Virus record (IMG/VR): IMGVR_UViG_3300023174_000063
DNA from: a virus
DNA length: 64,000 bases
Direction: 5' to 3' (one strand)
Every line of letters starts with the position of its first letter. Position 1 is the stretch's first letter. Position numbers and translations under genes: made by a program. A model generated the notes under the pieces. The model made no database searches and was not told the DNA's origin. It worked only from the letters and a program-made list of their open reading frames with translations. Below are positions 4,756-43,158 of the stretch, piece after piece.

Positions 4756-4788
4756 GGCATAGTATTTGATTAATTTCGGAGCACACAT

Positions 4789-4992
4789 ATGAATAATTTT
4801 GAAGATTTTGACATGCTGTTTGAGGCTCTGACACAGGACTGGGAGACTGATGTCAAGGATAAATGCAAAGCTGAGTATGAAGAAATTAAAAAAGAAAGTC
4901 TTAATTTTATTGAATATTTTAATAAAATCTTAAGTGACAAGTCTCTTGCAGAGCAAATTGAGAATGAATTAGACAAGAGGTTAAGATCTTGA
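4789..4992 (+). CDS. Small hypothetical protein
   Basis: 67 aa, GGAG upstream of ATG, 4-nt overlap with the next gene. Confidence 0.6.
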   Translation: MNNFEDFDMLFEALTQDWETDVKDKCKAEYEEIKKESLNFIEYFNKILSDKSLAEQIENELDKRLRS

Positions 4993-8804: not shown

Positions 8805-9097
8805 GTGTTTCTAGATATAGAAGATCTTCTAGGATTAAAGCGGGAACCCAGCTGAGTACATCTAATATTAGTGCGCTAATTTACTCTAATGTCAGAGAGG
8901 GAAATATTACGACATTTAATTACGTCCTCAAAGAAGGAGAAAGACTCGATCAACTAGCTGGAAGATATTTGGGGAATGGTGATCTTTGGTGGGTTATTGC
9001 TGCTGCAAGTGGAATCGGGTGGATGTTGCAGGCAGCTCCAGGAACTAGAATTAAAATACCCGACAATGTCGGACAAATTATGTCGTATGTGAGTTAA
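8801..9097 (+). CDS. LysM-like baseplate wedge protein (gp53/GpX-like)
   Basis: YVLKEGERLDQLAGRYLGNGDLWWVIAAASGI...PGTRIKIP, the typical LysM/tail-X pattern. Confidence 0.85.
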   Translation: MSVSRYRRSSRIKAGTQLSTSNISALIYSNVREGNITTFNYVLKEGERLDQLAGRYLGNGDLWWVIAAASGIGWMLQAAPGTRIKIPDNVGQIMSYVS

Positions 9098-9099
9098 AA

Positions 9100-12000
9100 A
9101 TGTCAAATGTTACAGTTCGACCTGAGTTAGACGAAATAATTAATAGACTTGGTAGATATTTTGGATCCATCTCTAAGAGTGCATTCTTAAATTACGCCGC
9201 TAAAAAAAGAGAAAAAGATGGCAAAATTGAACCCTTGAGCGGAATTGAGACGGCTATTACAACGCTAGGTGATGTCATTCTTGATATGCAAGAAGGCGGC
9301 AAGATGACAAAAGACATTATTCAACAAGTAAATGAGAAACTAAATAGAACTTCCCCAGAAGATTCTGAAAATAGTCTAGACACTACAATGCCATCTGTTC
9401 TTAGAATTACATATGAACCGATTCCTGACGCCGCCGCATGCAATATCGTTCATGGGCATACGGCCGGAGCGAAATTAAAAGATCAAGGTTCTTTTGCAGG
9501 CTCTACAGACAGTAATATTTTTTCAATTAGAAAAGTTTTAGGAAAGCTAGACGAATCAAATTTTATTAACATCAATCCAGAAGCACCTGACAAAGATACA
9601 TCTCCTGGGCTCTCTGTTATTCAAATGATACCTCCGGCACTAACACCGGCAAATAGAGACACCGGTGCAATTTCTTTATTAATGAATACGATTCCGACTC
9701 TAGAGATGAGTCGAGCCGTCCCATATATTGACATTGTAGCTATTTCTAGAACACCGTCGCTTACAGAAGCGTCTAATGGTGCTGGTAGAATTGCCCAAAT
9801 GTCTCTTGGGCAATTTTTATTAGGAAATGATAATGTTACCGGTGTTTCAAAAGTTATAGCAGGAGCGCTAGATCAATCTGTAGTCAAGGACCCGCCGCCA
9901 CCGCTAGATAATAATGATGGAACTTCTTCTAGAGCATCAACAGTAAAAGATTTTGGTACTGCAGGAATGGAGCTTTTTACGAGCCCACAGACTCTTGTGA
10001 ATGCAGATGAAATGCACAATGAATTTGACTCAATTGAGAACAGTAATTTTAATACTCTCACCGGCGAAAAAGAGACTGAAACTCTTCATCCGGGCGGGAA
10101 AAGGGCAGCACCAGTAATCGACCGCTTCAGGCCCTTAATGTCGCTTTCTGACTTTAAGGTAAATGTTTCGCCTTTGAAGGGTGTAATGTCTTACAAGAGC
10201 GCTGAAATGAATCTTATACTGCACGATAGATCTAGACTAGCAGAAATTGCACCCTTTGTCAAGCCAGACGTATTTGATAGAAATCATTTTCTCATTGAGT
10301 ACGGCTGGGCACATCCTGAAAACAAAGTTCATGAATTTTCTCCTTTGGGACAATCGATGAATATTAAGCAACTTGATGATGATTTAAATGCCAATCTAAT
10401 CGGCTTATTTATTTCTCACATGAGATGCAGAGAAAAATATCACGTTATCAACTCTTCCTTCACATTTGATGAAACTGGGCAAGTTCAAATTAACGTCAAA
10501 TTGGCAATGTTGGGAGGCGAAGACAGATTTCTGACTAGAATTGGCAGCGGTGGAGAAGTAGAAGAACAATCAAAAGCAATCAAAAAAGTCACAGAAGCAA
10601 TTGCAGAAGTAAGAAAAAAAATAGGCAGCTCGCAGGCCGGTGGCTCTGAAGATGTTTTAGGAGATAGCAATATACTCAATATTGCATCTACAGCAGAATC
10701 AGCAGTCAATCTCAAAAAAGATGATATGAAAAAAATCAATGAATTTCTCAAAAAGAACAAAGGACAATCACAAGTTCAAGAAATAGAGAAACTCAAAGAA
10801 TGCTTTACACAGCTATTAGGACCGAATGGCGACGGCACAGGAACTTCATTAATAGCTAGCATTAGAGGAAGTATCGCAGCCGAAATTAATAGAAAAATGT
10901 CTGCAATTAAAAACGGATATGATCCATGGATTCGAACAATGTCTTTGGGTGGAAAAGACATCACTGAAAAGAACATTGGAAATTACGTTTCTCTCGGTAA
11001 AATTTTTACTATCTTTTTAGGAATGCCACTAGCTGACACTAAAAAATTTGATGATGTTCAAATATATTTTTACTCCTTCAATGACAAAGCATCCTTCGCC
11101 AAAGATTTAAACATCGCACAATTTCCAATCCCTTGCGACGACTTAGAAGAAATGCTTAAAGAGACAATGAAATTAGAGGCAAATCTTCCACTTATGTCTT
11201 TCATTAATTTCATTAATAATGCTTTCATCTGCGATCAAGGAAGCCCTGCGTACGGCATGACAAATATTTTTACTGACAGAGACAAAGAAAGCAAGCTTAA
11301 AAGAAAGTTAGCCAAAGAATTCGAAGAAGACGGCACGCTTATGTTTGGAGAAAAGCAGAGAATCTTAAGGAGCGCATACGGAGAAGGTGCCGATCTTGTT
11401 TTTAAGCTTCCAGCTTTAAAGATTAAAGTAGAGACAGTCCCAGTAGCCGATAAGACTAAAGATTCTGATGGTGTCGACGAAATGGGTGCCAGCAAGACAA
11501 TTCTTAGGGTCCATGTGTTCGATGCGCAAGCATCTTCTTACACGTGTCTTTCATCTCTTCTTGCGGCATCTAGAAGAGACCAGATGGGCATCATAACAAA
11601 GTCTGCCGGGAATGTAACTAATGCATCAACTGCATCACCCCAGCACAATGATGAATTTAACAAGTATCTTGCTGAAGCTGTAAGCAGGGGACTTTTAGAG
11701 TTAATTCCCGCGACATCAGAAAAAATTAGTCCCGAGATGAAATCGACAGAAGAAGCCTCAAAGGGCAAACGTTATTATCGCCTCGCTGGTGGTTTCCCTG
11801 CCCTAAAAAACTATATTAGCAGAGCAATGCCTTCAGTTGCATACGGGTCACAAAATTCAGGTATTATTAAAGCTAATGTTCAGAGCATGCAGAATGCTCT
11901 ACTTTCCACAGTGAACATGCAACGACAAGGTTTGCGTCCCGGCGACCAGCCACAGAGTAAGAGAGACGCAGGAGTTCCTATGACTGTCCAGCCTGTCGAA

Positions 12001-12273
12001 TGCAGCCTAGAAACAATTGGTTGTCCTCTATGGGAGTTTGGGCAGCAAATATTTATCGATTTTGGAACTGGAACTTCTGTTGACAATGTCTATCAAGTTA
12101 TTGGTCTTGATCACTCCCTTAAGGCAGGAGAGTTTAGAACTACAGTTAAGCTGGCGTCATTGTTGACGTGGGGCGTCTATGAATCAATGGTTGACAAGAT
12201 TATGGAGGCCACTGCAGTCATTGCAAGTGCGCCGGCGGCTAATCCTCCGGACGATCCCACTGCGAAAAATTAA
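9100..12273 (+). CDS. Baseplate hub protein (gp27/GpD-like)
   Basis: IEYGWAHP motif; C-terminal ETIGCPLWEFGQQIFIDF..DNVYQVIGLDHSLKAGEFRTTVKL typical of hub proteins; follows the LysM gene. Confidence 0.7.
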   Translation: MSNVTVRPELDEIINRLGRYFGSISKSAFLNYAAKKREKDGKIEPLSGIETAITTLGDVILDMQEGGKMTKDIIQQVNEKLNRTSPEDSENSLDTTMPSVLRITYEPIPDAAACNIVHGHTAGAKLKDQGSFAGSTDSNIFSIRKVLGKLDESNFININPEAPDKDTSPGLSVIQMIPPALTPANRDTGAISLLMNTIPTLEMSRAVPYIDIVAISRTPSLTEASNGAGRIAQMSLGQFLLGNDNVTGVSKVIAGALDQSVVKDPPPPLDNNDGTSSRASTVKDFGTAGMELFTSPQTLVNADEMHNEFDSIENSNFNTLTGEKETETLHPGGKRAAPVIDRFRPLMSLSDFKVNVSPLKGVMSYKSAEMNLILHDRSRLAEIAPFVKPDVFDRNHFLIEYGWAHPENKVHEFSPLGQSMNIKQLDDDLNANLIGLFISHMRCREKYHVINSSFTFDETGQVQINVKLAMLGGEDRFLTRIGSGGEVEEQSKAIKKVTEAIAEVRKKIGSSQAGGSEDVLGDSNILNIASTAESAVNLKKDDMKKINEFLKKNKGQSQVQEIEKLKECFTQLLGPNGDGTGTSLIASIRGSIAAEINRKMSAIKNGYDPWIRTMSLGGKDITEKNIGNYVSLGKIFTIFLGMPLADTKKFDDVQIYFYSFNDKASFAKDLNIAQFPIPCDDLEEMLKETMKLEANLPLMSFINFINNAFICDQGSPAYGMTNIFTDRDKESKLKRKLAKEFEEDGTLMFGEKQRILRSAYGEGADLVFKLPALKIKVETVPVADKTKDSDGVDEMGASKTILRVHVFDAQASSYTCLSSLLAASRRDQMGIITKSAGNVTNASTASPQHNDEFNKYLAEAVSRGLLELIPATSEKISPEMKSTEEASKGKRYYRLAGGFPALKNYISRAMPSVAYGSQNSGIIKANVQSMQNALLSTVNMQRQGLRPGDQPQSKRDAGVPMTVQPVECSLETIGCPLWEFGQQIFIDFGTGTSVDNVYQVIGLDHSLKAGEFRTTVKLASLLTWGVYESMVDKIMEATAVIASAPAANPPDDPTAKN

Positions 12274-12309: not shown

Positions 12310-13533
12310 ATGACGACGATTCTAATTCATAAAACGCTTTCCGGAACAAAAAATCATCTTCGAAATGATCCTTCCGGATTTGCAATTACGCATGAAATTT
12401 TAGATGATAATTGGATTGTCGGCAATGAAGAGACAGTTAAGTCTGTAGATGTAGTTTCGCAGATTTTTGATGAACAGCTACCACGAATCTGTGATGCTGC
12501 ACACTTAGCTGCCTTTAAAGCTCTTAATCTGGACGAAGATAATCCAATTCCTTGGCACTTAGTTCTTTCAAAAGAAGAGTTTAAGTGCAGAATTTCTAGG
12601 ATTATGACTTCTTCTAATGAAGTGTTGAAAAAGCTTAAGCTTTCAAACTACGAAGAAATATTTGTTCAGAATAGAAAATTTTTAAAGTCATTGTCAAAAG
12701 CTGCAATCGATCTAGAAAAACTAGAAAATTATCTGAGTGACTCAAGTGACAATCCCACAAGGGCATCAACACTTAAGACTTTTTTGCCTGGTGCTGATGG
12801 TTTTGCAGACGCTATAAATTACGACCAGACTGCAACAGTAACAGGACGACTTACAGTTAAGTCGGGACCTCGAGTGCTTACGCAGCCGGCGGAGACACGT
12901 GACATATTTAAGTCTAGATACACTAATGGCACAGTTTATTCAGTTGACTTTGTTTCTCTCGAACCTCGTGTTATTAGAAAAATAATGTTTGGCGATGAGA
13001 CGCCTACTGACATTTACCAGCATGTTCAAGATCTGATTGGTAATAAGACTTTGGCGCGCAACGAAATAAAGCGACTAATCATTTCTTGCATTTATGGCGC
13101 TTCAAAACAGAGATTAAATTCTATGTCCAAGATAAGCAATCTTTCGAGCGCAATGATTACGATAGATGATTATTTTGGCATTGAAAGATTAAATCAAAAA
13201 TTACAGCAGTGTCATTCCGAGAATGGTCATATTATCAATTACTTTGGTCGCCCCGTCTTTAATGACAAAGAAGAGAGTCATTTGTGGCTTAGCCACTATG
13301 TGCAATCAACAGCTGTAGACGTGGCGCTCGATGGATTCTCTAAGATGTCAAAAGATCTGAATTGTCTAGACAAAGACATCGTTCCTTTCGCTGTCATTCA
13401 CGATGCAGTTCTCTTTGATGTGCCCAGCAAGTCAAACAATCTCTTTGTCGATTATACAAATGAACAAATCACGACAAGACTAGGTCAATTTCCAGTGTCT
13501 AGGACAGAAATTAGCAGGAGGTCAGATGTCTGA
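12310..13533 (+). CDS. polA: Family A DNA polymerase, polymerase domain only (no recognisable 3'-5' exonuclease)
   Basis: TVTGRL; motif A SVDFVSLEPRV; motif B RNEIKRLIISCIYG; VQSTAVD; motif C IHDAVLFD. Confidence 0.85.
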   Translation: MTTILIHKTLSGTKNHLRNDPSGFAITHEILDDNWIVGNEETVKSVDVVSQIFDEQLPRICDAAHLAAFKALNLDEDNPIPWHLVLSKEEFKCRISRIMTSSNEVLKKLKLSNYEEIFVQNRKFLKSLSKAAIDLEKLENYLSDSSDNPTRASTLKTFLPGADGFADAINYDQTATVTGRLTVKSGPRVLTQPAETRDIFKSRYTNGTVYSVDFVSLEPRVIRKIMFGDETPTDIYQHVQDLIGNKTLARNEIKRLIISCIYGASKQRLNSMSKISNLSSAMITIDDYFGIERLNQKLQQCHSENGHIINYFGRPVFNDKEESHLWLSHYVQSTAVDVALDGFSKMSKDLNCLDKDIVPFAVIHDAVLFDVPSKSNNLFVDYTNEQITTRLGQFPVSRTEISRRSDV

Positions 13534-16542: not shown

Positions 16543-17487
16543 ATGCGCGACGTTATTATGTTAGTCGACGCCATGAATCTCTTCATAAGACATTTTGTGG
16601 TGAATCCGACAGCAAGCAATAACGGAGCGCATGTTGGTGGTTTTGTGGGATTTCTTGGCGCAATTAGGACACTTAGCGAACGACTGAATCCTAAAAAGAT
16701 TGTGGTCGTTTGGGAGAGCGGTGGATCCCCGCGGCGCCGAAGAATTTTTCCTGATTATAAAAAGGGTAGAAGACCACAGCGTCTCAACAGAAATAACGAA
16801 GATATTCCTAATACAGTTTCAAATCATGACCAGCAGATAATGCTGATTATTGAAGCGTTGAGACATGTACCTGTTTCTCAAATTTATATTGCTGATTGTG
16901 AAGCTGATGATGTAATCGGCTACCTTGTCAAATATAAATTTAGAGATGAAAAGTGCGTGATTGTATCTTCAGACAAAGATCTCTATCAGCTTTTAAACGC
17001 TAATGTGTCACAATGGTCGCTGGGCCAAAAAATGCTGATAACTCCAGAAGTAGTTCTAGAAAAGTTTGGGGTCTCTAGCAATAACTTTTGCGTTGCTCGA
17101 TGCTTTGTGGGAGACAATTCTGATGGAATTCCAGGCGTTGAGCGAGCAGGCTTTAAAACTTTGTCTAAATATTTTACAAGTTTACGTGAACATGTCGACT
17201 TGTCGGTAGAAGATATTGTTGAGGAGGCATCTAAGCGGGTTACAAATAAATCACCTGCGCTTTTCAATAACATTGTTAGCGAGATGTCAACTGCCAAAAG
17301 AAACTGGAGCCTGATGTATCTAGACACTAGGAATCTTTCGGGAGATCAAATACAAAAAATCAATGATACATTAGAGACTTCGACACCAAATAAAAACAAA
17401 ATGGCATTAATTCGTCTCCTCCTTCGTGAGGGCATTCAGACGTTTGATGTCGACACCTTCTTTATGTCACTAAAAACACTAGGATAA
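16543..17487 (+). CDS. 5'-3' exonuclease / flap endonuclease (T4 RNase H-like)
   Basis: LVDAMNLFIR; RRRIFPDYKKGR; CEADDVIG; SSDKDLYQL; GDNSDGIPGV. Confidence 0.92.
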   Translation: MRDVIMLVDAMNLFIRHFVVNPTASNNGAHVGGFVGFLGAIRTLSERLNPKKIVVVWESGGSPRRRRIFPDYKKGRRPQRLNRNNEDIPNTVSNHDQQIMLIIEALRHVPVSQIYIADCEADDVIGYLVKYKFRDEKCVIVSSDKDLYQLLNANVSQWSLGQKMLITPEVVLEKFGVSSNNFCVARCFVGDNSDGIPGVERAGFKTLSKYFTSLREHVDLSVEDIVEEASKRVTNKSPALFNNIVSEMSTAKRNWSLMYLDTRNLSGDQIQKINDTLETSTPNKNKMALIRLLLREGIQTFDVDTFFMSLKTLG

Positions 17488-21446: not shown

Positions 21447-21544
21447 AATCTGAACCGCTTGTTCGGTGAGTTTTCTGACTAAAAAGTCAAAGTCGTATAG
21501 TTCTGTCATGTAGGGTTTTGTCAAACACTAACATAGGAGACTAT

Positions 21545-23605
21545 ATGTCATTTACAACAAAAATGAGACTCTCGCAGATGACCGGATCAATCGGTACAGG
21601 CGAAGGTCAGATTCGTGACGATCACAGCGCAGAAGTTTCTACAGCAATTGAGGCTGGTGATCTCGGCGTAATGCTAAGCCACATGGCTTCAGCAATTAAG
21701 CGCATCCACGGTGCAGACAGCTTCACAGAGGCTGCTGCCGGTAATTTCGAAATTGCTCTCTACGCACAGGACGCACTGTACGTCTCAGGCGCTGCTGAGT
21801 TTGCAGACAACATTCACGCTCTAATGAGCCTCGACGTTGATGGCGACATCACAGGCTCAAATTTGTCACTCTCGAGCAACCTCTCAGCCGTTGACGGCAC
21901 CTTCTCAGGTAACATCTCGGCCGTTGACGCCACCCTCTCGGGCGACCTCTCGGCTGTCAGCGGTACATTCTCAAGCAACATCTCGGCCGTCGGTGCAACA
22001 CTGTCGGCAGACCTTGCTGCTGTCAATGCCACACTTTCAGGCGACCTCTCGGCTGTCGACGGCACCTTCTCAGGTGACATCTCGGCAGTTGATGCGACCC
22101 TCTCGGGCGACCTCTCGGCTGTCAGTGGTACATTCTCAAGCAACATCTCGGCCGTTGGTGCAACACTGTCAGCTGATCTCTCAGCTGTCAATGCCACGCT
22201 TTCAGGCGATCTCTCGGCTGTCGACGGCACCTTCTCAGGTGACATCTCGGCAGTTGATGCGACCCTCTCGGGCGACCTCTCGGCTGTCAGTGGTACATTC
22301 TCAAGCAACATCTCGGCAGTTGGAGCAACATTGTCAGCAGACCTCGCTGCTGTCAATGCCACACTGTCAGGTGACCTCTCAGCCGTTGACGGCACCTTCT
22401 CAGGTGACATCTCGGCTGTTGACGCCACACTGTCGGGTGACCTCTCGGCTGTAAGCGGTACATTCTCAAGCAACATCTCGGCCGTCGGTGCAACACTGTC
22501 AGCTGATCTCTCAGCTGTCAATGCCACACTGTCAGGTGACCTCTCGGCAGTTGATGCGACCCTCTCGGGCGACCTCTCAGCCGTTGACGGTAACTTCTCA
22601 GGTGACGTTGTAATCACCGGTGATCTCACCGTCCAGGGAACAACTACAACACTCGACACACAGAACCTCCTCGTCGAGGATCCTATCGTTCTCTTCGGTT
22701 CGAATGCAGTTACATCGAACTCGAACGGCGGTATTGCAATCCTCTCGGGTTCTTCGGTCGCTGATCAGTCACTCGTCCTCGGCCGCGTTGCCAACGACGT
22801 GTGGGGTGTTGGTCGCAAGGACGTCGAGGGCGGCACAGTTACAACACTGGCCGACATGACACTCGTCGCTTTCCGCGCTGATAAGCTCGAGCTCGGCAGC
22901 GCTTCAGACTACATCCACGTCACAGGTTCGGACATGAACATCATCGCCGCTGGCGACATCATGATCGATCCTGCAGGTGGCGACGTCTTCTTCGACGCTC
23001 CTATCCAGCCCAAGTCCGGTGAGATTCACGATCTAGGTAAGGATGGCAATGCATGGCGCGACCTCTGGATGCGCTCCAGCGGAAAGTTGACATTCGGCGC
23101 CGGTGGTTCAAAGGGTGTTATCGAGCACGCCGTGCACGATGGCGCATTTGCAATCACAGTTCCCAGCGGCTCACTGGTCGCCGAGAACAAACTCTACGTT
23201 GAGAACATCATGGTCGCCAAGGACCAGGGTGCAGACCCTGCTTCACCCAACAGCGGCTACGGTGCATTCTACGTAAAGAATGACAAGCCTTACTTCAAGA
23301 ACGACGGCGGATCTGTTTGGGATCTAACAGCCGGTTCATCGTACTACAAGGCACAGCATGCTGTTACAGCTTCTGTTGCAGCCAACACATCTGTCGCCAT
23401 CGGCGCAGTCAATCACGACAATGCTGTTCCTGAGCACCTTGACGTTTACGTCAACGGTAACCTCCTGCTGTCGGGTGCACTCTCGGCTGGAAACGTTGCC
23501 TCTGGCGCTGACTACTCGATCGACGGACTCTCCGGCGCAGAATTCAAGTTCGCGTTCGGCCTCGAGCCCGGCGACGTCGTAGTCGTCAAGAAGATCGCTG
23601 TCTAA
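21545..23605 (+). CDS. Fibre-like structural protein with tandem 11-aa repeats
   Basis: Start placed at ATG 21545 (AGGAGA SD); post-repeat GDLTVQGTTTTLDTQNLLVEDPIV and C-terminal LDVYVNGNLL..DY..FKFAFGLEPGDVV are typical of phage fibre/baseplate-attached proteins. Confidence 0.75.
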   Translation: MSFTTKMRLSQMTGSIGTGEGQIRDDHSAEVSTAIEAGDLGVMLSHMASAIKRIHGADSFTEAAAGNFEIALYAQDALYVSGAAEFADNIHALMSLDVDGDITGSNLSLSSNLSAVDGTFSGNISAVDATLSGDLSAVSGTFSSNISAVGATLSADLAAVNATLSGDLSAVDGTFSGDISAVDATLSGDLSAVSGTFSSNISAVGATLSADLSAVNATLSGDLSAVDGTFSGDISAVDATLSGDLSAVSGTFSSNISAVGATLSADLAAVNATLSGDLSAVDGTFSGDISAVDATLSGDLSAVSGTFSSNISAVGATLSADLSAVNATLSGDLSAVDATLSGDLSAVDGNFSGDVVITGDLTVQGTTTTLDTQNLLVEDPIVLFGSNAVTSNSNGGIAILSGSSVADQSLVLGRVANDVWGVGRKDVEGGTVTTLADMTLVAFRADKLELGSASDYIHVTGSDMNIIAAGDIMIDPAGGDVFFDAPIQPKSGEIHDLGKDGNAWRDLWMRSSGKLTFGAGGSKGVIEHAVHDGAFAITVPSGSLVAENKLYVENIMVAKDQGADPASPNSGYGAFYVKNDKPYFKNDGGSVWDLTAGSSYYKAQHAVTASVAANTSVAIGAVNHDNAVPEHLDVYVNGNLLLSGALSAGNVASGADYSIDGLSGAEFKFAFGLEPGDVVVVKKIAV
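21881..22606 (+). repeat. Coding tandem repeat: 22 x 33 nt (11 aa), arranged as 4 x 165-nt super-repeats plus 2 units
   Basis: Unit cycle LSAVDGTFSGD / ISAVDATLSGD / LSAVSGTFSSN / ISAVGATLSAD / L[AS]AVNATLSGD. Confidence 0.95.
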
Positions 23606-26959: not shown

Positions 26960-28330
26960 ATGTCGAGCAATAATCTTGCAGTTCGAACAGTCGATGACTT
27001 TTTTGACCATGAATTGCGTGATTACGCAAAGTATGTAGTCCGTCATCGTGCAATTCCAAGTGTAATTGATGGCTTTAAGCCATCGCAGCGGAAGATTGCA
27101 CACACTGCCAATACTGTCTGGAAGACAGGCAACGAAAAGCCCATGAAGGTTTTTCAGCTCGGCGGCCTGGCAGCATCACAGACAATGTTCCACCACGGCT
27201 CTCTGGATGGTACAATCATTGGGATGACACAAGAGTTTAAAAACTCAATGTCAATCTTTCAAGGCATTGGCCAGTTTGGCTCTCTTCGGTCTCCCGAGGC
27301 AGGTGCTCCTCGATACGTTGGTGTTAAGTTCAATGAGAATTTTAGACTCCTATACCAGGACTTCGATCTTGTTGAGAAGCAGACCGAAGAAGGCGTCGAA
27401 ATCGAGCCTAAGTTCTTTCTGCCTATCTTGCCCACAGTTCTTTTGAACGGCGGAAGTGGCATCGCTGTAGGCTTCGCGACTAACATCTTGAATAGACATC
27501 CTGTGCATCTTATTGATGCTTGTCTTGATACGTTGAATGGCAAGTCTTGTACTACCTTGAAGCCATGGATTAACGGCTATGTGGGAGATATTGATCTAGT
27601 TCCGGGGACCCAAAAATCTTGGGTGCTGCAGGGTAAGTTCGATGTTAAAAATACTTCCACTGTAGAGATCACAGAGCTTCCACCGTCTTGGACGTACGAG
27701 AAGTATGAAGTGCTGCTTGATGGACTAGTCAATAAGGGCTTGATCCACTCCTATGACGACCATTCAGCTACGACACCGCACTATGTCCTGAAGTTTAATA
27801 GGCTGAAGCTAGCAGAGCTTATTCAGAAGAATAAGCTTGCAGATCTCCTTAAGATGTCAGAGCGTGAGACCGAAAATTTTACGACACTCGATGAGTCGGG
27901 TGATCTTAAAATCTTTGATACCGCTGAAGGCATCGTCGATTATTTCGTAAATTTTCGTCTGAAGTACTACGATATTCGACGTAGCAAGCTCATTGAGAAG
28001 ATCAACTCAGAGCTGAAGGTCATCGATAACCGTTGCAAGTTTATCGATGCGATTCTCTCAGAAACACTTGTCATTAGCGGTCGAAAGAGGGCTGAGATCG
28101 AAGCAGATCTTGTGAAGCTGCAGATTGACAAGCACGAAGACAGCTACAATTATCTGCTAAACATGGCAATTCACAGCTTGACACAAGAGAAGGTTAAAGA
28201 GCTGGTTGCATCTAAGCTTAAGAAGCAGAAGGAACTCAAGCAGATTGAATCAACAACAGGAAAGAGAATGTATGTCGATGACCTCCAGGATCTTCGCGCC
28301 AAGCTCATCAAGCAAGGTTACACTCCCTGA
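26960..28330 (+). CDS. Type IIA topoisomerase medium subunit (T4 gp52-like)
   Basis: RAIPSVIDGFKPSQRK; FHHG; GQFGS; GAPRY catalytic Tyr; GIAVGFAT; EITELP. Confidence 0.95.
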   Translation: MSSNNLAVRTVDDFFDHELRDYAKYVVRHRAIPSVIDGFKPSQRKIAHTANTVWKTGNEKPMKVFQLGGLAASQTMFHHGSLDGTIIGMTQEFKNSMSIFQGIGQFGSLRSPEAGAPRYVGVKFNENFRLLYQDFDLVEKQTEEGVEIEPKFFLPILPTVLLNGGSGIAVGFATNILNRHPVHLIDACLDTLNGKSCTTLKPWINGYVGDIDLVPGTQKSWVLQGKFDVKNTSTVEITELPPSWTYEKYEVLLDGLVNKGLIHSYDDHSATTPHYVLKFNRLKLAELIQKNKLADLLKMSERETENFTTLDESGDLKIFDTAEGIVDYFVNFRLKYYDIRRSKLIEKINSELKVIDNRCKFIDAILSETLVISGRKRAEIEADLVKLQIDKHEDSYNYLLNMAIHSLTQEKVKELVASKLKKQKELKQIESTTGKRMYVDDLQDLRAKLIKQGYTP

Positions 28331-28760
28331 AAACTGGTCTCCTCCTAGATCTCCTATCGGACTCATACAAGAAGATCTCTGGCCAAATGAATGGAAGATT
28401 CTTGTAGCATGTCTGCTGCTCAACCTCACGACACGCAAGCAGGTTGATGGCGTCATCTATGAGCTATTTAAAAAATACCCCACTCCGGAGGCCCTGGGAG
28501 CTGCAGGAGACATCGAATTGGAGGAGATGATCAAACCATTGGGTATGCAGAAGAAACGCTCTGCGACACTGCGGCGGTTCTCTAATGAATATCTCCAAAA
28601 GTCATGGAAGACTGCATCTGATCTTCACGGGTGTGGCAAATACGCAAATGACTGCTGGCGGATTTTTTGTCTAGGTGAGTGGCGTAGTGTTCAACCTAGC
28701 GATCACGCTTTAAACAAGTATGTAGACTACCTTAAGAAAGGAGATTCAATCGATGCCTGA
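28272..28760 (+). CDS. MBD4-like HhH-GPD mismatch DNA glycosylase (stand-alone catalytic domain)
   Basis: WSPPRSPIGLIQEDLW..WKILVACLLLNLT; KYP; KPLG; LHGCGKYANDCWRIFC..EW..V.P.DHALNKY matches the MBD4 glycosylase domain as I recall it; start codon uncertain (28272 or 28278). Confidence 0.85.
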   Translation: MSMTSRIFAPSSSSKVTLPENWSPPRSPIGLIQEDLWPNEWKILVACLLLNLTTRKQVDGVIYELFKKYPTPEALGAAGDIELEEMIKPLGMQKKRSATLRRFSNEYLQKSWKTASDLHGCGKYANDCWRIFCLGEWRSVQPSDHALNKYVDYLKKGDSIDA

Positions 28761-29559
28761 GGGACCTGAGGTGCGACGCTTTGGCGACGACTTGGCAAGA
28801 GAAATTTCAGGAAAGACACTTGTCGATGTCAAAGTGCTTACTGGACGATATCTCAAGAAGCCAATTAACGGAATCGAAGATTTTAAGGCGAGACTACCAC
28901 TTTCAGTTGTAGGCACCGGTGTTCACGGTAAGTTCTTGTACTGGATTCTAGAAGATTGCAATTTTGTTTTTAATACATTGGGAATGACAGGGCACTGGTC
29001 CAAGACGCCGGGTAAACACTCTAGAGTGGAGTTTAAGTTCTCAAGCGGAGAAAGTGTATTCTTTGAAGACACACGAAATTTCGGCACAATCTCTCTAGAG
29101 CGAGGCAAGAATAAGTTCTACAAGAAAATAAACAGTCTCGGTCCTGACATGCTGGTAGAAGATGTAACAGACGACGTTTTTGTCGACAGGCTCCAGAAGC
29201 ATCCTGACTGGCAGATTACAAGTGCCCTCATGGACCAGTCAGTAATCGCAGGCGTTGGCAATTACGTTAAAGCTGAAGCACTATACAGGTCGAATATATC
29301 ACCTCTGCGTGCTGTCAGGTCAATTACGCGGCAAGAAGCAATTCTTCTGAATAAATCAATTAAAGACATTCTGAGAGAGAGCTACAATGCCGGAGGCACA
29401 ACGGTCAAAGATTATCGGCGAATGGATGGCTCTTTGGGCGTGTACACATTCGATCTTCGTGTTTATAATAAGAAATATGATCCGGCAGGTAATCCTGTTG
29501 TCAAAACATTAACAGAAGATAATAGAACCACGCACTGGGTCCCTAACACACAAAAGTGA
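28753..29559 (+). CDS. Fpg/Nei family DNA glycosylase/AP lyase (zincless finger)
   Basis: N-terminal MPEGPEV; HGK; LGMTG; DTRNFG; LGPD; LMDQ..IAGVGNYVKAEALY; C-terminal RTTHWVP..Q without Cys ligands. Confidence 0.92.
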   Translation: MPEGPEVRRFGDDLAREISGKTLVDVKVLTGRYLKKPINGIEDFKARLPLSVVGTGVHGKFLYWILEDCNFVFNTLGMTGHWSKTPGKHSRVEFKFSSGESVFFEDTRNFGTISLERGKNKFYKKINSLGPDMLVEDVTDDVFVDRLQKHPDWQITSALMDQSVIAGVGNYVKAEALYRSNISPLRAVRSITRQEAILLNKSIKDILRESYNAGGTTVKDYRRMDGSLGVYTFDLRVYNKKYDPAGNPVVKTLTEDNRTTHWVPNTQK

Positions 29560-29567
29560 GGCAGCAA

Positions 29568-29798
29568 ATGGATAACTTAAAGCTTTCGGATGACTCAATT
29601 TCTACTATTGCAAAGCTTTTGCAGATTGCAATTCTAACAGGAACTGACATCGTCGACAATCTTAGAATGGTGACATTCACTGTCAACGATGGAAAGCTTG
29701 TACCAACGCAGCAGTTTATAGACAATCTCAACGGCGGCATCAACTCGATGCTGGATAAAGTTGAGTCAATTAAGAGCGAAACAGAAACGGTCAACTGA
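29568..29798 (+). CDS. Small hypothetical protein
   Basis: MDNLKLSDDSISTIAKLLQIAILTGTDIVDNLR; start 29568 or 29556. Confidence 0.7.
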   Translation: MDNLKLSDDSISTIAKLLQIAILTGTDIVDNLRMVTFTVNDGKLVPTQQFIDNLNGGINSMLDKVESIKSETETVN

Positions 29799-29806
29799 GG
29801 TTAAAA

Positions 29807-30175
29807 ATGTCAGATCGATTTGACGAAATGTACGACCAGCAACGTGATTTCAACCAGCTACTGCATGAGCATCGTGGACAGCCTGCATTTCCACTAGATC
29901 TCAAGACAAAGCAGAACCAGCAGTATTTGAAGTCTCTCACACATGAGTGCATGCATGAGCTTTTTGAAGCAAATCTCCTGCTGAAAAACAGCAAGAAGCA
30001 TCGTGCAACAATCGTCGAAGATTTTGATCGTGAGTCCTACAAGGAAGAGCTCTGTGATGCACTGCATTACCTCCTGGGTATTGTCGTGTATTCTGGCATT
30101 TCTAAGGAAGAATTTTTCGAGGCCTACATGAAAAAAGGCCAGATCAATGTTGATCGTATCAAGAGCGGGTACTAA
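29807..30175 (+). CDS. All-alpha dimeric dUTPase/MazG-like nucleotide pyrophosphatase
   Basis: HELFEA...K.H...YKEELCDALHY..: ExxE/EExD metal-binding pattern. Confidence 0.8.
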   Translation: MSDRFDEMYDQQRDFNQLLHEHRGQPAFPLDLKTKQNQQYLKSLTHECMHELFEANLLLKNSKKHRATIVEDFDRESYKEELCDALHYLLGIVVYSGISKEEFFEAYMKKGQINVDRIKSGY

Positions 30176-30194
30176 ACCCTAAGGAGACCATCAA

Positions 30195-31154
30195 TTGTCT
30201 GATTCTAAGTTTGAGTCGCTTGTTAGTGCTCTGCTAGAGCAGCGTAAATTTTCAGATCTTTTCTATGACACCAAGAACATGTCTGAGTCGGAGCGAGAAG
30301 AGTCTTTGCGCCGACTAGCCTTGTGTGCACACACAGCTGTCTCAGACATCGTCTCTTCTGTCAACTTTAAGTCGCATCTCAAGACGCATCAGCATGTCGA
30401 CCATGCGAAGATGCTCTACAAGACAGTTGATCTTTTTAGGTACACATTGGCAGTACTCAATCTTTGGGATATTGACCCACAAAAGTTTGTAGATGCGTGT
30501 GATATCAAGAACAATTTTCTTCATATGCGTCACCGTTTAGATTCAGCGCCATGGGACGGTCGTCCTGTTGTTGTGTTTGATTGCGATGATGTAATTGCAA
30601 AGTTTAGAAGTCATTTTGATAATTTTCTCGAGAAGAAGTGGTCGATCCCACTAAACCCTGACTCTAACGAGTATTACAATAACGCAGGTCTTGTTGAGGC
30701 AGGTCTAAATCCCGAGATTGCATTTAGAGACTTCTTGAGCTCTGGGCAGATGCGAGAGCTTAAAGTAAATACAAATGTAGCAGACGCAATGAGAATTCTC
30801 TCTGATAGAGGTTACTGGATCCAAATTTTGACTGCTCGTCCTGCTGAGAGCCTTAATTGCTTCTATGACACATTTCACTGGATTGAAAAGAATGGAATTC
30901 CATGCAATGCCGTTGGATTTAGTTCTGAAAAGTACAGGTGGGTAAGCGAGCAACAGTTCTACATGGACGGCAAAATGGTCTGTGCAGTCGATGACTCTCC
31001 TAAGCATGCTGCCGAGTTTGCAGCGCATGGAGTGAAAGCCATAATGCCTGCTATGCCTTACAATGCACATGTCAAAAACTCTGACACGCTCGAGCGAGTA
31101 GACTTTTCTCTGCTGAGCGCTGATGAAATTGTCAAGCTTATTGTCGATCTTTAA
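30195..31154 (+). CDS. Fusion: degenerate MazG/dUTPase-like domain + HAD 5'(3')-deoxynucleotidase (NT5C-like)
   Basis: TTG start with AAGGAG; N-half parallels 29807 protein but lacks the acidic ligands; C-half has FDCDDVI, ILTAR, K, AVDDSP. Confidence 0.75.
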   Translation: MSDSKFESLVSALLEQRKFSDLFYDTKNMSESEREESLRRLALCAHTAVSDIVSSVNFKSHLKTHQHVDHAKMLYKTVDLFRYTLAVLNLWDIDPQKFVDACDIKNNFLHMRHRLDSAPWDGRPVVVFDCDDVIAKFRSHFDNFLEKKWSIPLNPDSNEYYNNAGLVEAGLNPEIAFRDFLSSGQMRELKVNTNVADAMRILSDRGYWIQILTARPAESLNCFYDTFHWIEKNGIPCNAVGFSSEKYRWVSEQQFYMDGKMVCAVDDSPKHAAEFAAHGVKAIMPAMPYNAHVKNSDTLERVDFSLLSADEIVKLIVDL

Positions 31155-31164
31155 TAGACTCTTT

Positions 31165-31193
31165 GTGTAAAATTCGAAGAGTTGTGCTACAAT
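31165..31193 (+). promoter_or_regulatory. Promoter GTGTAA-N17-TACAAT upstream of the ThyX-like gene
   Basis: Same boxes and spacer as at 24999 and 35356. Confidence 0.7.
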
Positions 31194-31214
31194 ATTAAAA
31201 AACGAGGAGTAGTG

Positions 31215-32195
31215 ATGCCAATTAATCATGATCTAGAGCCGATTGTTCTTCCTATGGAGCTTAAGTTTGGTCGTCCTGTCAAGACAGAATATCACAATGC
31301 ACTTGATGCACTCAAGGTTGAGCTTGTTGATGCGCCTACTCGACAGCAGGCTTGGAATGTTGCTTGGCACTTTGTAAAAGCCACATGGGCAGATCGACCT
31401 GATATTGACCCGGGTAGCGCAACACCGCATGAACTCTCTAAGAATCTTGAGGATGTCTTTGGTGGCAGGACTCTTCCTGCTCCAATGGAGTGCCTAGGCT
31501 TCACCTTCCGGCTAAGCGGTCTATCCTTCCAGGACGTAACCCACATTATTCGTCACCGTGCTGGAACATTTGCGGCACAGTGTACGGGCGACAGAGACCT
31601 GAGAGATGACGATGCTGTAATTCCCGAGCCGGTGCAAAACTCGCCAGAGTTTCTCGAGCGCTGGAAGAAGATCGTCGATGAATCGAAGCAGCTTTATGCT
31701 GATATGACAGACTCGAAGGTCGTCTCGATGATGGATGCTCGCCTCATTCTTCCAAAGTGCATGACGTCTTTCTACTATATGCGTCTGCCACTCAAGGATC
31801 TCATCGGCTTTATCTACCAGCGCCAGGATAGGCAGATTCAAACAGCTGCCGACAATATCCTTGCAGTCAGAATGGCAGTTGAAGTTGCAAAGGTTTTGCC
31901 CGAGTTTACAGCTCTCGTCGACTTCAATAAGCCCGATATGCACTACATTAAGACATTCCGAGTCAAGGAGGGCGATAAGTTTGTATCTCGTGGTACAAAC
32001 CTCTACTGGCCTGAGCCCAAGAATGATAAGTTCGACTTTCACCCTGAGGACACGATCTATCAATGTAGGAGAGAAGAGCTTAATGGAACACACGGCGACG
32101 GTGAACAGAAGAAGTTCCTCCAGCACTGGAACAGCGGTGTCGCAGAGTTTGATGAGATTAAGACAAATTACGCATCATGGAAGGCAGGTAAGTAA
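31215..32195 (+). CDS. thyX: Atypical flavin-dependent thymidylate synthase (ThyX/Thy1)-like protein
   Basis: PMEC.GFTF; HIIRHRAGTFAAQCTGDR; DARLILP; GFIYQR; start moved to ATG 31215 after GAGGAG SD. Confidence 0.8.
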   Translation: MPINHDLEPIVLPMELKFGRPVKTEYHNALDALKVELVDAPTRQQAWNVAWHFVKATWADRPDIDPGSATPHELSKNLEDVFGGRTLPAPMECLGFTFRLSGLSFQDVTHIIRHRAGTFAAQCTGDRDLRDDDAVIPEPVQNSPEFLERWKKIVDESKQLYADMTDSKVVSMMDARLILPKCMTSFYYMRLPLKDLIGFIYQRQDRQIQTAADNILAVRMAVEVAKVLPEFTALVDFNKPDMHYIKTFRVKEGDKFVSRGTNLYWPEPKNDKFDFHPEDTIYQCRREELNGTHGDGEQKKFLQHWNSGVAEFDEIKTNYASWKAGK

Positions 32196-32659
32196 TGAGT
32201 TTCGAAAGAAAGCAGTCAGTCTATCTCGCTAGCGGTTGGTTTTCTCCCGACCAGGACAAACAGCTCACAAAGCTCGAGAAGCTCTTTGATGATCGTTCAA
32301 GCTGGATTAATCTTGCATCTCCTCGTCGAATCTTTGTCTGCCCGCCTGACGCATCTCTTGAGGTGCAAGACAATGTTTTCAAGGGCAACATGAAGCATAT
32401 CAGAGAGTGCGATTTTACTCTTGTCAATACAACTTATCGTGATATTGGCACGATTTGGGAAGCCGGCGCTGCATTTGCGCTTGATCGAAAGATCATTTAC
32501 TTTTGTGAGAACCTGCCTGCCGGCGCAAAGTTCAATCTAATGCTTTCACGAAGCGGAATTAAGGTTTGTACAACTTTTGAACAACTTGAAGACTACCTCA
32601 ATCGATGTGAAGCAGCAGGTGAGCTTCTATATGAGCCGTACGACAAGGAAATTGAGTGA
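32195..32659 (+). CDS. Nucleoside 2-deoxyribosyltransferase / dNMP N-glycosidase (NDT/DNPH1/MilB family)
   Basis: VYLASGWFS; SP; DIGTIWEAG (catalytic Glu); FNLML. Confidence 0.85.
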   Translation: MSFERKQSVYLASGWFSPDQDKQLTKLEKLFDDRSSWINLASPRRIFVCPPDASLEVQDNVFKGNMKHIRECDFTLVNTTYRDIGTIWEAGAAFALDRKIIYFCENLPAGAKFNLMLSRSGIKVCTTFEQLEDYLNRCEAAGELLYEPYDKEIE

Positions 32660-40167: not shown

Positions 40168-41133
40168 ATGTTCATAATGCTGAACTTGAAGTGCATTACT
40201 ATTGAGGGCCCTGACTGCGCCGGCAAGAGCTCTCTCTATAATGATATTCATCGAGAAACTAGCTTTAGATGGAATATTCAAGACAGAGGTCAGCTAAGCA
40301 TGGTTTGCTATGCTAGACTCTATGAACGAGGTAGTGAAATAGTTGATCATTGGCGCGCAGAACTTCATGAGTACCTTAAAAATCTAAATCAACGTCTAAT
40401 TGTGCTTCTGCCGCCTCTTCGTGTGCTACACCAGCGCCTGGAGTCACGAGGCGACCCCATGCAGAATGCAGAGTCCCTGTCTAAACTTTACGAGATATTT
40501 GATGACGAGCTTAAGATTTTGCACGCTGAAGATCTGCCTAATGTGTTGGTTATTAGAGGCGAAAATTCCCTAGATGAAAACGTTAAGCATTGCCTGTCAT
40601 GGTTGGCGCATGCGGGCATTTCCACTGCTAGAAATATTGCCAGCGACGTAGAGGCTGCAGTATTTGCATCACCTAAGAATGAAATATGTGGTTTAAATTT
40701 TGAACTCAATTTCAAGAGCGGCACCGCCGAGTTTCAGGCGCTGGAGAATCCAGCAGTAATGCAGTATCTGCCAGAAGAGGTGTATTACTCTGAAATACTG
40801 TCAAAAGTTTTAAAGAATATTGACGACGAAATCAATGGTAGAAATCCTTACTCACGCCCTGAGAACCCGCGGAGTACGCGCCGTTTTATCTTTGCGCAAG
40901 ATAGCTGCATTTCTACTATTCATACAATGATTCGCGACGATTCGATGACAATGAAGGTCTACTGTAGATCATCAAATGTTACCAATACATTTCCCCATGA
41001 TCTAGGATTTATCTGCTATCTTTTCACTAGAGTTTATCATCATTTATTTCACCGTACGCTATGGCGACCAACAAATTGCTCTCTGCGAGTAGAGATTGGA
41101 TCTGCACATTTACCCGCAATGGCGGGCCACTAA
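40168..41133 (+). CDS. Fusion: dNMP (thymidylate-type) kinase + truncated thymidylate-synthase/dCMP-hydroxymethylase-like domain
   Basis: ITIEGPDCAGKS, DRGQLS..Y, LESRGD (kinase); STRRFI..DSCISTIHTMIRD..MKVYCRSSNVTNTFPHD...GSAHL (TS fold); start 40168 or 40177. Confidence 0.75.
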   Translation: MFIMLNLKCITIEGPDCAGKSSLYNDIHRETSFRWNIQDRGQLSMVCYARLYERGSEIVDHWRAELHEYLKNLNQRLIVLLPPLRVLHQRLESRGDPMQNAESLSKLYEIFDDELKILHAEDLPNVLVIRGENSLDENVKHCLSWLAHAGISTARNIASDVEAAVFASPKNEICGLNFELNFKSGTAEFQALENPAVMQYLPEEVYYSEILSKVLKNIDDEINGRNPYSRPENPRSTRRFIFAQDSCISTIHTMIRDDSMTMKVYCRSSNVTNTFPHDLGFICYLFTRVYHHLFHRTLWRPTNCSLRVEIGSAHLPAMAGH

Positions 41134-42744: not shown

Positions 42745-43158
42745 ATGACACAGAGAGTTCGTCCAAGTTGGGATAGTGTTTGGATGAAGATGGCTGAGAC
42801 AATTGCGCAGCGGTCACACGATAATCGCTGTCAAGTTGGCGCTGTTGTAGTGACGAGCGACAACACGCAAGTGCTGTCAGTCGGTTATAACGGAAATTAT
42901 GCAGGAGGGCCTGATTGCTCAGAATCAGAAGAACCAGGCATGTCAGGACTTTTGCATGCAGAAATTAATGCTCTCCTTAAACTTGATTACAACAATCCTA
43001 AGAAAAAGATTTTGTATGTAACAATGTCACCTTGCGCAATGTGCGCTAAGGCAATTGTCAATGCCGGCATCAATGAAGTAGTCTACTCGCTAGTCTATAG
43101 AGATCTCCAGTGTTTTAAGATTTTAGATGACGCAGGTGTTATTATAAGAAAAATTTAA
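42745..43158 (+). CDS. dCMP deaminase
   Basis: VGAVVV..VGYNG; HAEINA; SPCAMC. Confidence 0.92.
   Translation: MTQRVRPSWDSVWMKMAETIAQRSHDNRCQVGAVVVTSDNTQVLSVGYNGNYAGGPDCSESEEPGMSGLLHAEINALLKLDYNNPKKKILYVTMSPCAMCAKAIVNAGINEVVYSLVYRDLQCFKILDDAGVIIRKI

Follow-up and report, generated by a model that had tools for sequence, protein, structure and literature searches.

The overlapping glycosylase and Nei genes

The sequence analysed is a stretch of 64,000 nucleotides (nt) from the IMG/VR record IMGVR_UViG_3300023174_000063, and this whole stretch is called the window throughout. By gene annotation it is a one-strand phage module for replication and nucleotide metabolism. The subject of this work is a pair of overlapping genes within it, one for a DNA glycosylase of the MBD4 type and one for a zincless member of the Fpg/Nei family (called Nei below). 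The features of the pair are as follows, with the means of assignment in brackets.

28258..28268, + strand: purine-rich Shine-Dalgarno-like stretch AGGAAAGAGAA before the possible starts of the MBD4-like gene (read from the sequence)
28272..28760, + strand: stand-alone MBD4-type helix-hairpin-helix (HhH) DNA glycosylase, 162 amino acids (aa), predicted monofunctional (phmmer, AlphaFold 2 (AF2), Foldseek)
28753..29559, + strand: zincless Fpg/Nei-family glycosylase/apurinic-apyrimidinic (AP) lyase, 268 aa (Pfam, PDB match)

The open frame of the glycosylase gene spans 28206-28760 (+), and the likely start is either the ATG at 28272 or the ATG at 28278. The Shine-Dalgarno-like stretch falls inside the 3' end of the gene for the medium subunit of topoisomerase II (end at 28330), which the glycosylase gene overlaps by 59 nt. 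At its other end the glycosylase gene contains the start of the Nei gene (ATGCCTGA), giving an overlap of 8 nt, with a GGAG at 28740-28743, 9 nt upstream of that start. The overlap and the GGAG suggest that translation of Nei is coupled to that of the glycosylase.

The original prediction had recognised the MBD4 catalytic domain in the sequence, and by sequence match and structural model the product of 28272-28760 is confirmed as an MBD4-type enzyme that matches the domain over its full length. In a phmmer search against PDB, 136 of its residues (20-155) align with residues 11-146 of the mouse MBD4 domain 1ngn at E 4.6e-42, and 14 further MBD4 chains match at E <= 1.9e-40. The best non-MBD4 chains in the same search are MIG (1kea, E 0.0074) and EndoIII (E 0.033). 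All motifs that had been quoted (WxPPRSP, LxQE, LHGxGKYxND, RIFC and PxDHxLNKY) are present in the MBD4 alignment.

An AF2 model made from 16 homologues has a mean predicted local distance difference test score (pLDDT) of 90.6, residues 1-19 being of low confidence. Its 16 best Foldseek matches in PDB are all MBD4, with a template modelling score (TM) of 0.90-0.95, a root mean square deviation (rmsd) of 1.0-1.4 A and 44-47% identity; the top superposition has TM 0.95, rmsd 1.0 A and 46% identity. EndoIII and MIG reach TM 0.41-0.42 under the target-length normalisation that was also used for MBD4, and 0.55 when normalised by query length. The top E value and the top TM together rule out a grouping with Nth, MutY or MIG.

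The Fe-S motif C-x6-C-x2-C-x5-C was not found in the glycosylase, which stops after the last MBD4 helix, and neither a methyl-CpG-binding domain nor any other domain was found in its 162 aa. Its Pfam HhH-GPD score of 25.4 bits is just under the threshold of 26.2, and Pfam-based surveys would therefore miss the gene. The NCBIfam nth model gives 35 bits against a cut-off of 211.7, and no PHROGs family was found for it. The top matches in an exhaustive HMMER search are eukaryotic MBD4 proteins with 45-50% identity.

Nei scores 68.3 bits with Pfam Fapy_DNA_glyco, 68.1 bits with H2TH and 34 bits with Fapy_DNA_glyco_C. The predicted absence of zinc holds, as does the overlap: the Pfam zinc-finger model gives no match, and there is no cysteine in the last 37 residues (232-268). 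Of the solved structures, zincless mimivirus Nei1 (MvNei1; 3a45/3a42) matches best and aligns end-to-end at E 6e-41. The N-terminal MPEGPEV, the GKFL with the lysine of the catalytic region, and RTT(H/Y)W are all aligned with MvNei1, and the finger with its conserved arginine, NRTTHWVPNTQK, aligns with KRTTYWAPAIQK of MvNei1. Judged by these residues Nei is catalytically intact. Against the NCBIfam equivalogs it scores 165.8 bits with TIGR00577 fpg (cut-off 203.3) and 81 bits with endonuclease VIII (cut-off 252); it is below both cut-offs and is therefore taken as a member of the Fpg/Nei family and not as an orthologue of bacterial Fpg or Nei.

Matches to Nei were found in 35 of 50,697 cultured phage records, several of the 35 being bacterial contigs. 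The true cultured phages among them include Bacillus phages SP-15 and SP-10, which have hypermodified thymine. Fpg/Nei genes may be linked to base-modified phage genomes in general.

Active site, distribution and phylogeny

Residue roles in the glycosylase were transferred from human MBD4 as described in PMC3479182, where the pocket residues read O2, N3 and O4 of the flipped thymine or 5-hydroxymethyluracil (5hmU) as well as the orphan guanine, while the 5-substituent is without protein contact. Q33, Y124, D144, L50 and L90-G91 of the window protein correspond to human Q449, Y540, D560, L466 and L506-G507. The catalytic residue and the pyrimidine-recognition pocket are intact: the equivalents of Asp560, Gln449, Tyr540 and Leu506-Gly507 do not vary among 205 viral and stand-alone copies, and the position of human Leu466 is L in 157 and H in 48 of these. 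The HhH position that is lysine in bifunctional enzymes is a tyrosine, as in monofunctional MBD4, and the glycosylase is therefore predicted to be monofunctional, leaving the abasic site intact.

In the DNA-intercalating loop L52, R55 and A146 stand for human R468, G471 and K562. Position 468, the Arg/Lys finger that fills the gap of the flipped base, is L, Q or C in 199 of the 205 viral copies and K or R in 122 of 146 eukaryote-type proteins. Position 471 is Arg in 204 of the 205 and G or A in 130 of the 146, and position 562 is Ala in 181 viral copies and mostly K or M in eukaryote-type proteins. The window protein thus lacks the Arg/Lys finger that serves as a criterion of the MBD4 family; it has Leu52 at this place and an arginine three residues on (R55). 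Judged by the alignment, the viral MBD4-type enzymes are a distinct structural variant without the eukaryotic finger.

A word-indexed search gave 234 stand-alone proteins of 134-162 aa that share 58-99% identity with the glycosylase and come from marine and freshwater metagenomes. Longer, fused forms were not found by this search, which is a limit of the index, as the exhaustive search gave hundreds of long eukaryotic proteins. The latter found 2,864 homologues, 235 of them below 1e-30; the representatives that score best are long proteins which carry the domain C-terminally. Named homologues come from birds, fish, a fern, Prasinoderma, Cyanophora, Ceratiomyxa and Pigoraptor, and the domain is therefore spread across eukaryotic supergroups.

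On the viral side, at least 125 IMG/VR contigs carry a relative. Among the 50,697 cultured phage records the gene was found in only 16. Nine of these are Xanthomonas phages of the Xp12 group and four are AXL1 and Donnerlittchen phages related to them; the others include S-TIM54, a cyanophage, and a partial match in an archaeal virus. The BFVD database gave only a baculovirus homologue.

Two pattern scans of 185,579 bacterial and archaeal species, each represented by one genome, gave a single true match. The broad alignment A3 was too diverse for use in such a scan, and the other 10 of the 11 matches of the second scan were rejected as MutY-like, nine of them having the Fe-S motif. The single match is L097, an 89-kb contig (JBBAUR010000009.1) of a metagenome-assembled genome (MAG) of Bdellovibrionota. 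It is syntenic with the IMG/VR viral contig L007, many open reading frames (ORFs) being 40-86% identical, and is therefore regarded as a phage contig or prophage. Its presence in the MAG may be due to the binning of a phage contig, or may point to the host of the group-B phages described below. As far as the scans reach, the MBD4 glycosylase family is common to phages and eukaryotes and essentially missing from cellular bacteria and archaea.

A tree of 82 rows and 147 columns was rooted on E. coli Nth and MutY. One cluster holds 45 of the 47 viral rows, with a support of 87 in the Shimodaira-Hasegawa-like approximate likelihood ratio test (SH-aLRT), and the eukaryotic groups form a basal polytomy. 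Constraining the tree to eukaryote monophyly gave a tree that is slightly better than the free one and is not rejected by the approximately unbiased (AU) test (0.70). From this tree the viral and eukaryotic groups look like sister clades, and it gives no verdict on the direction of transfer. The apparent grouping of Xp12 with green-algal proteins in this quick tree was distrusted, as a long branch is involved.

Gene neighbourhood and likely pyrimidine modification

Gene neighbourhoods were counted at 80 IMG/VR viral loci. Nei lies within 10 kb of the MBD4-like gene in 38 of them and within 30 nt in about 17. In group A, the lineage of the window, the order is gp32, RecA, flap endonuclease (FEN), DnaB, ribonucleotide reductase (RNR), ClpP, MBD4-like gene, (topoisomerase II), Nei, a small ORF, MazG-like gene and DnaE, followed by a ThyA homologue or, in the sublineage of the window, by a ThyX-like gene. 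The small ORF and the nucleotide cluster downstream of the pair in the window are as follows.

29556..29798, + strand: small conserved ORF, 80 aa from GTG 29556 or 76 aa from ATG 29568 (tblastn)
29807..30175, + strand: all-alpha NTP pyrophosphohydrolase, MazG/dimeric-dUTPase-like, first gene of the cluster (Pfam dUTPase_2 E 7e-6, PRA-PH E 7.5e-4)
30195..31154, + strand: NT5C-type 5'-deoxynucleotidase domain (residues 123-296) after an N-terminal part (Pfam NT5C E 3.4e-6)
31182..32195, + strand: divergent ThyX paralogue, 337 aa, candidate pyrimidine-modifying enzyme (Pfam Thy1 E 1.1e-14)
32195..32659, + strand: nucleoside 2-deoxyribosyltransferase/dNMP N-hydrolase-like protein (Pfam Nuc_deoxyrib_tr E 6.4e-13)

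Pfam annotation of the genes at 29807-32659 agrees with the earlier placing of the pair directly upstream of a nucleotide cluster. The small ORF was found by tblastn in 30 of the 80 loci, always just downstream of Nei or of the MBD4-like gene; it has no Pfam match and may be a third component of the cassette. The MazG-like gene is syntenic in 21 of the 80 loci and the NT5C-domain gene in the sublineage of the window.

The co-occurrence of the MBD4-like gene with a thymidylate synthase (TS)-like or ThyX cluster, which had been predicted across phages, was found. In Xp12, AXL1 and Donnerlittchen the MBD4-like gene lies directly before a cluster of pyrophosphohydrolase, TS homologue, dCMP deaminase and dihydrofolate reductase (DHFR). 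An aspartate in the alignment column of E. coli ThyA Asn177 marks dCMP-specific ThyA homologues. This column is Asp in 14 of the 14 ThyA homologues found in MBD4-bearing viruses, namely seven group-A contigs, G005, G003, G001 (gp42-like), G002, G008, S-TIM54 and Xp12. Among the controls, E. coli ThyA and the SPO1-type and ViI-type enzymes have Asn and T4-type gp42 has Asp. The 14 Asp-type homologues span several TS subtypes, which argues against one inherited coincidence. The group-A ThyA homologues score best against SPO1- and ViI-type dUMP hydroxymethylases, which suggested thymidine replacement; their Asp at the N177 column points instead to dCMP. All cytosines of Xp12 are 5-methylcytosine (5mC) according to a passage in PMC7653180. 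In the MetaGPA study (PMC8670742) the Pfam domains with the highest enrichment in experimentally selected cytosine-modified virome contigs include Thymidylat_synt, PRA-PH, dCMP deaminase and Thy1, and no HhH-GPD entry was found in the part of its table that was searched.

Two of the carriers deserve separate mention. Cyanophage S-TIM54 (L108, OP053362.1) has its TS homologue with Asp at the N177 column at 145421-146233, and its MBD4-type gene is annotated as hypothetical. From these two genes C5-modified cytosine is predicted in S-TIM54 DNA; PMC10087341, which mentions this phage, contains no discussion of DNA base modification. G001 carries a homologue of the dCMP hydroxymethylase gp42 of T4.

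The sublineage of the window is different in its modification genes. In its complete 284-kb relative G004 no ThyA homologue was found, and there are two genes of the ThyX family, a canonical one (174 bits) and a divergent one of 341 aa (69 bits) beside the MBD4 cluster. The gene at 31182-32195 is the orthologue of the divergent copy. It keeps RHR and two other arginine motifs, and the ThyX motif RHRxxSxxxxSxRY reads RHRAGTFAAQCTGD, with C-T-G-D in place of S-x-R-Y. A phmmer search gave no PDB match for it, and its best cultured match is Geobacillus phage GR1 with 48% identity. It is a candidate for a new flavin-dependent pyrimidine-modifying enzyme.

Another gene of interest lies further downstream.

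40168..41133, + strand: P-loop kinase-like N-terminus fused to a weak TS-core remnant, 321 aa (hhalign against a TS alignment)

The match of its C-terminus to the TS alignment is weak (hhalign E 8.6e-4, probability 23%). The protein has IEGPDCAGKSS at the N-terminus, the TS-core cysteine, R-S-S (C..RSS..D) and Asp at the N177 column. It fills the DnaE-[TS]-GMD-TK slot (GMD, GDP-mannose-dehydratase-like protein; TK, thymidine kinase) where relatives hold an Asp-type ThyA homologue, and an orthologue was found only in G004. From these gene assignments pyrimidine modification in the window phage, on C or on T, is likely.

In group B a triad of NUDIX, UDP-sugar pyrophosphorylase (UDPGP) and MBD4-like genes recurs, often with Nei 1-8 kb downstream, and this triad hints at sugar-decorated DNA bases. 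It is seen in L006, L007, L009, L052, L054 and others, just upstream of position 10001, and its carriers are large uncultured phages with contigs of up to 369 kb with terminal repeats. Group C consists of TIM5-like cyanophages, where no partner gene was recognised beside the MBD4-like gene. At locus L008 a minimal PolX-like gene lies near the glycosylase.

The genes of the window come in the following order: minimal PolA, gp32-like single-stranded DNA-binding protein, RecA, flap nuclease, DnaB and RNR; then a GC-rich repeat protein, a split T4-type topoisomerase II and the MBD4-like and Nei pair; after Nei the MazG-like pyrophosphohydrolase, NT5C-type nucleotidase, ThyX-like protein, deoxyribosyltransferase-like protein and an epimerase; further downstream DnaE, GMD, TK and dCMP deaminase; and in the last part a second flap nuclease, GroEL and a sigma-70 factor. 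Those that may bear on repair or on nucleotide supply are these.

12310..13533, + strand: minimal family-A DNA polymerase, polymerase domain only (Pfam DNA_pol_A E 9.7e-10)
16543..17487, + strand: 5'-3' exonuclease/flap endonuclease (Pfam 5_3_exonuc_N E 2.6e-30)
42745..43158, + strand: dCMP deaminase (Pfam dCMP_cyt_deam_1 E 8.1e-24)
58608-59423: second flap endonuclease copy (Pfam 5_3_exonuc_N E 3.1e-24)

The minimal PolA is a possible gap-filling enzyme. The window was called phage because of its bacterial-type replication genes (DnaB, DnaE, RecA, sigma-70, GroEL). Searches of five large viral records for capsid proteins of nucleocytoplasmic large DNA viruses (NCLDV) and for Terminase_6C gave no matches and were uninformative on this point. 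Megablast of 20 kb against the 50,697 cultured phage records found no near-identical relative. The stretch 27000-31000 was found nearly whole in a lake-water metagenome and in parts in freshwater and subsurface metagenomes from several studies. Relatives of the lineage are also present in Tara ocean data; a marine reading of the lineage was dropped because the sequence itself matches lake, freshwater and subsurface metagenomes.

Two other regions of the window were noted. At 21518-23605 a repeat-rich protein of 695 aa is encoded in the only GC-rich stretch (GC 0.53 vs ~0.43); it has many sub-threshold matches to repeat families (pentapeptide, bactofilin, shufflon), and the opposite strand has long ORFs running through the gene. 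Upstream of the replication module, 226-12273 holds three very large ORFs (1509, 1271 and 1057 aa) with no Pfam match at E 0.001.

A proposed base-excision cassette and its relation to known systems

We think it fairly probable that the overlapping pair is a phage base-excision cassette for phages that replace cytosine by a C5-modified cytosine. Such phages would need it because their deaminated modified cytosines are thymine-like bases that uracil-DNA glycosylase (UDG) does not see. A modified cytosine would deaminate to a thymine-like base opposite G, or such a base would be misincorporated while the canonical dCTP pool is depleted. The MBD4-type enzyme would flip out T, U or 5-substituted U opposite G and cut the glycosidic bond by means of Asp144, and the zincless Nei, made from the same transcript, would cleave the abasic site by beta,delta-elimination. 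The phage polymerase and flap nuclease could then finish the repair and restore the C-type:G pair. We infer these steps, with the substrate range, the co-operation with Nei and the cytosine modification in the window phage, from homology and gene association. Of the interpretation that came with the original prediction, the MBD4 identity, the zincless Nei and the co-occurrence stand, and C5-modified cytosine in the window phage keeps the status of a deduction, since the neighbouring enzyme is a divergent ThyX paralogue and not a ThyA homologue.

Several points weigh against the cassette as just described. The count of 14 Asp-type homologues covers MBD4-bearing viruses and is not a base rate among phages generally, and the genomes counted are related and thus not independent observations. 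No recognisable dCMP-type ThyA homologue was found in the window, and its neighbouring genes (NT5C-type, MazG-like, dCMP deaminase, thymidine kinase, ThyX-like) are just as compatible with thymidine replacement or with normal dTTP synthesis. Cytosine modification without an MBD4-type enzyme is known from phages such as T4. At about half of the viral loci Nei is absent from the surroundings of the MBD4-like gene. The DNA-intercalating loop (L468, R471, A562 in human numbering) is unlike that of every studied MBD4, and the opposite-base or substrate preference may differ.

The best surviving alternative, which we consider unlikely, is housekeeping repair, in which U:G, T:G and oxidised pyrimidines would be removed whether or not the phage modifies its bases, the position of the pair then being due to the usual clustering of early replication genes. 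The cassette does lie within a conserved replication module (gp32, RecA, FEN, DnaB, RNR, topoisomerase II, DnaE), relatives differ in where it stands with respect to the topoisomerase genes, and the window encodes thymidine kinase and dCMP deaminase for ordinary dTTP supply. Points against housekeeping are that the gene is found in only 16 of 50,697 cultured phage records, 13 of them from the lineage of the 5mC phage Xp12, that Asp is present in all 14 ThyA homologues checked in MBD4-bearing viruses, and that U:G alone is handled by the far commoner UDG-type enzymes.

The family-wide loop swap (L/Q/C at 468, R at 471 and A at 562, against K/R, G and K/M in eukaryotes) raises the possibility, which we rate as quite improbable, of a changed specificity, by which an unmodified pyrimidine would be excised from host DNA or from phage misincorporation and Nei would nick the abasic sites, leading to degradation of host DNA or purging of canonical bases. 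In human MBD4 positions 471 and 562 belong to the lining of the base pocket (PMC3479182), enzymes that lower the supply of canonical nucleotides (MazG-like, NT5C-type) are associated with the gene, and selective destruction of host DNA by base-replaced phages is generally known. The invariance of Q449 and Y540, which read the uracil-type Watson-Crick edge, and of the 506-507 backbone, which reads the orphan G, speaks instead for a conserved substrate logic, and no nuclease or targeting domain is attached to the glycosylase.

Highly improbable is counter-defence, with Nei as the key enzyme in repairing abasic sites and lesions from host anti-phage glycosylases that attack modified bases, and the MBD4-like protein as competitor or decoy. 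Excision of modified phage bases by host DNA glycosylases is a defence described in PMC11078745 and bioRxiv 10.1101/2025.10.29.685425, and the MBD4-like gene is associated with modification genes. A decoy, however, could do without the catalytic Asp and the pocket, both of which are fully conserved; nicking of an abasic site by a lyase gives no protection by itself, and no result here points specifically to this role.

An origin of the family can also be proposed, which we put forward only as a speculation at rather low confidence. The MBD4 domain would have been born in phages with C5-modified cytosine, where it served the repair side of this modification, and captured once by the stem eukaryote for the repair of T:G from 5mC, and the sublineage of the window would modify its DNA by a new flavin-dependent ThyX-like enzyme instead of a ThyA homologue.

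Full-text searches of the literature found no description of a phage MBD4 homologue, and reviews treat MBD4 as a eukaryotic enzyme. Automated JGI annotation already names viral proteins of the MBD4-like family. The statement that MBD4 is mainly known from eukaryotes is thus true of the literature and fails for sequence space, the family being widespread in uncultured phages. The literature ties MBD4 to eukaryotic CpG methylation; the same domain is a common stand-alone gene in several uncultured phage lineages and in Xp12. The MBD4-like gene may be a marker for phages with C5-modified cytosine, and the viral enzymes are a natural set with another base-flipping loop, useful for understanding the recognition of T:G and 5-substituted-U:G and perhaps for its exploitation. 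The distribution in phages and eukaryotes also bears on how eukaryotes assembled their toolkit for 5mC maintenance and repair.

The closest known system is the glycosylase domain of mammalian MBD4/MED1 (human residues ~426-580; PDB 1ngn, 3iho, 4dk9, 4e9e-h, 4evv, 4ew0, 6vjw). The window enzyme shares ~46% identity with it over the whole domain, the fold, the catalytic Asp, the pocket Gln and Tyr and the orphan-G Leu-Gly, and like it has no Fe-S cluster and a Tyr at the HhH lysine position. Unlike MBD4/MED1 it is a phage-encoded, stand-alone protein of 162 aa without methyl-CpG-binding domain or linker and is coupled to Nei, and it has the Leu-Arg-Ala signature at 468, 471 and 562 that is common to ~200 viral copies. 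Plant MBD4L (Arabidopsis; Ramiro-Merina et al. 2013, as cited in PMC9266487) likewise has the catalytic domain and no methyl-CpG-binding domain. It differs in its N-terminal extension, which is long, and in having the K/R-x-x-G loop of eukaryotes. The fern homologue P0179 shares 48% identity with the window glycosylase.

Among cultured phages, Xanthomonas phage Xp12, Stenotrophomonas phage AXL1 and Janthinobacterium phage Donnerlittchen (Bradleyvirinae) as well as S-TIM54 have stand-alone MBD4-type ORFs, 37-42% identical to the window protein and either unannotated or called 'endonuclease III'. These genes differ in having no adjacent Nei and in their modification enzyme, which is a ThyA homologue and not a ThyX paralogue, and the Xp12 group differs further by Trp at 471 and Gly at 561.

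The closest known relatives of Nei are mimivirus Nei1 (MvNei1, L315; PDB 3a42, 3a45, 3a46, 3vk7, 4nrw) and other zincless Fpg/Nei enzymes (NEIL1, plant Fpg); with MvNei1 it has in common PEGPEV, the lysine, H2TH and the arginine of the zincless finger. Unlike MvNei1 it is phage-encoded, has 268 aa instead of 287-295 and is genetically coupled to an MBD4-type glycosylase. The same logic is known from Mig.MthI/MIG (1kea) and from Vsr, which correct T:G from 5mC deamination and are encoded beside methylation genes, but MIG, which is MutY/Nth-like and has an Fe-S cluster, is only marginally similar to the window enzyme (E 0.0074), and Vsr is an unrelated endonuclease. Mammalian TDG is reported to co-operate with NEIL enzymes, and the pairing of MBD4 and Nei in the phage mirrors that arrangement.

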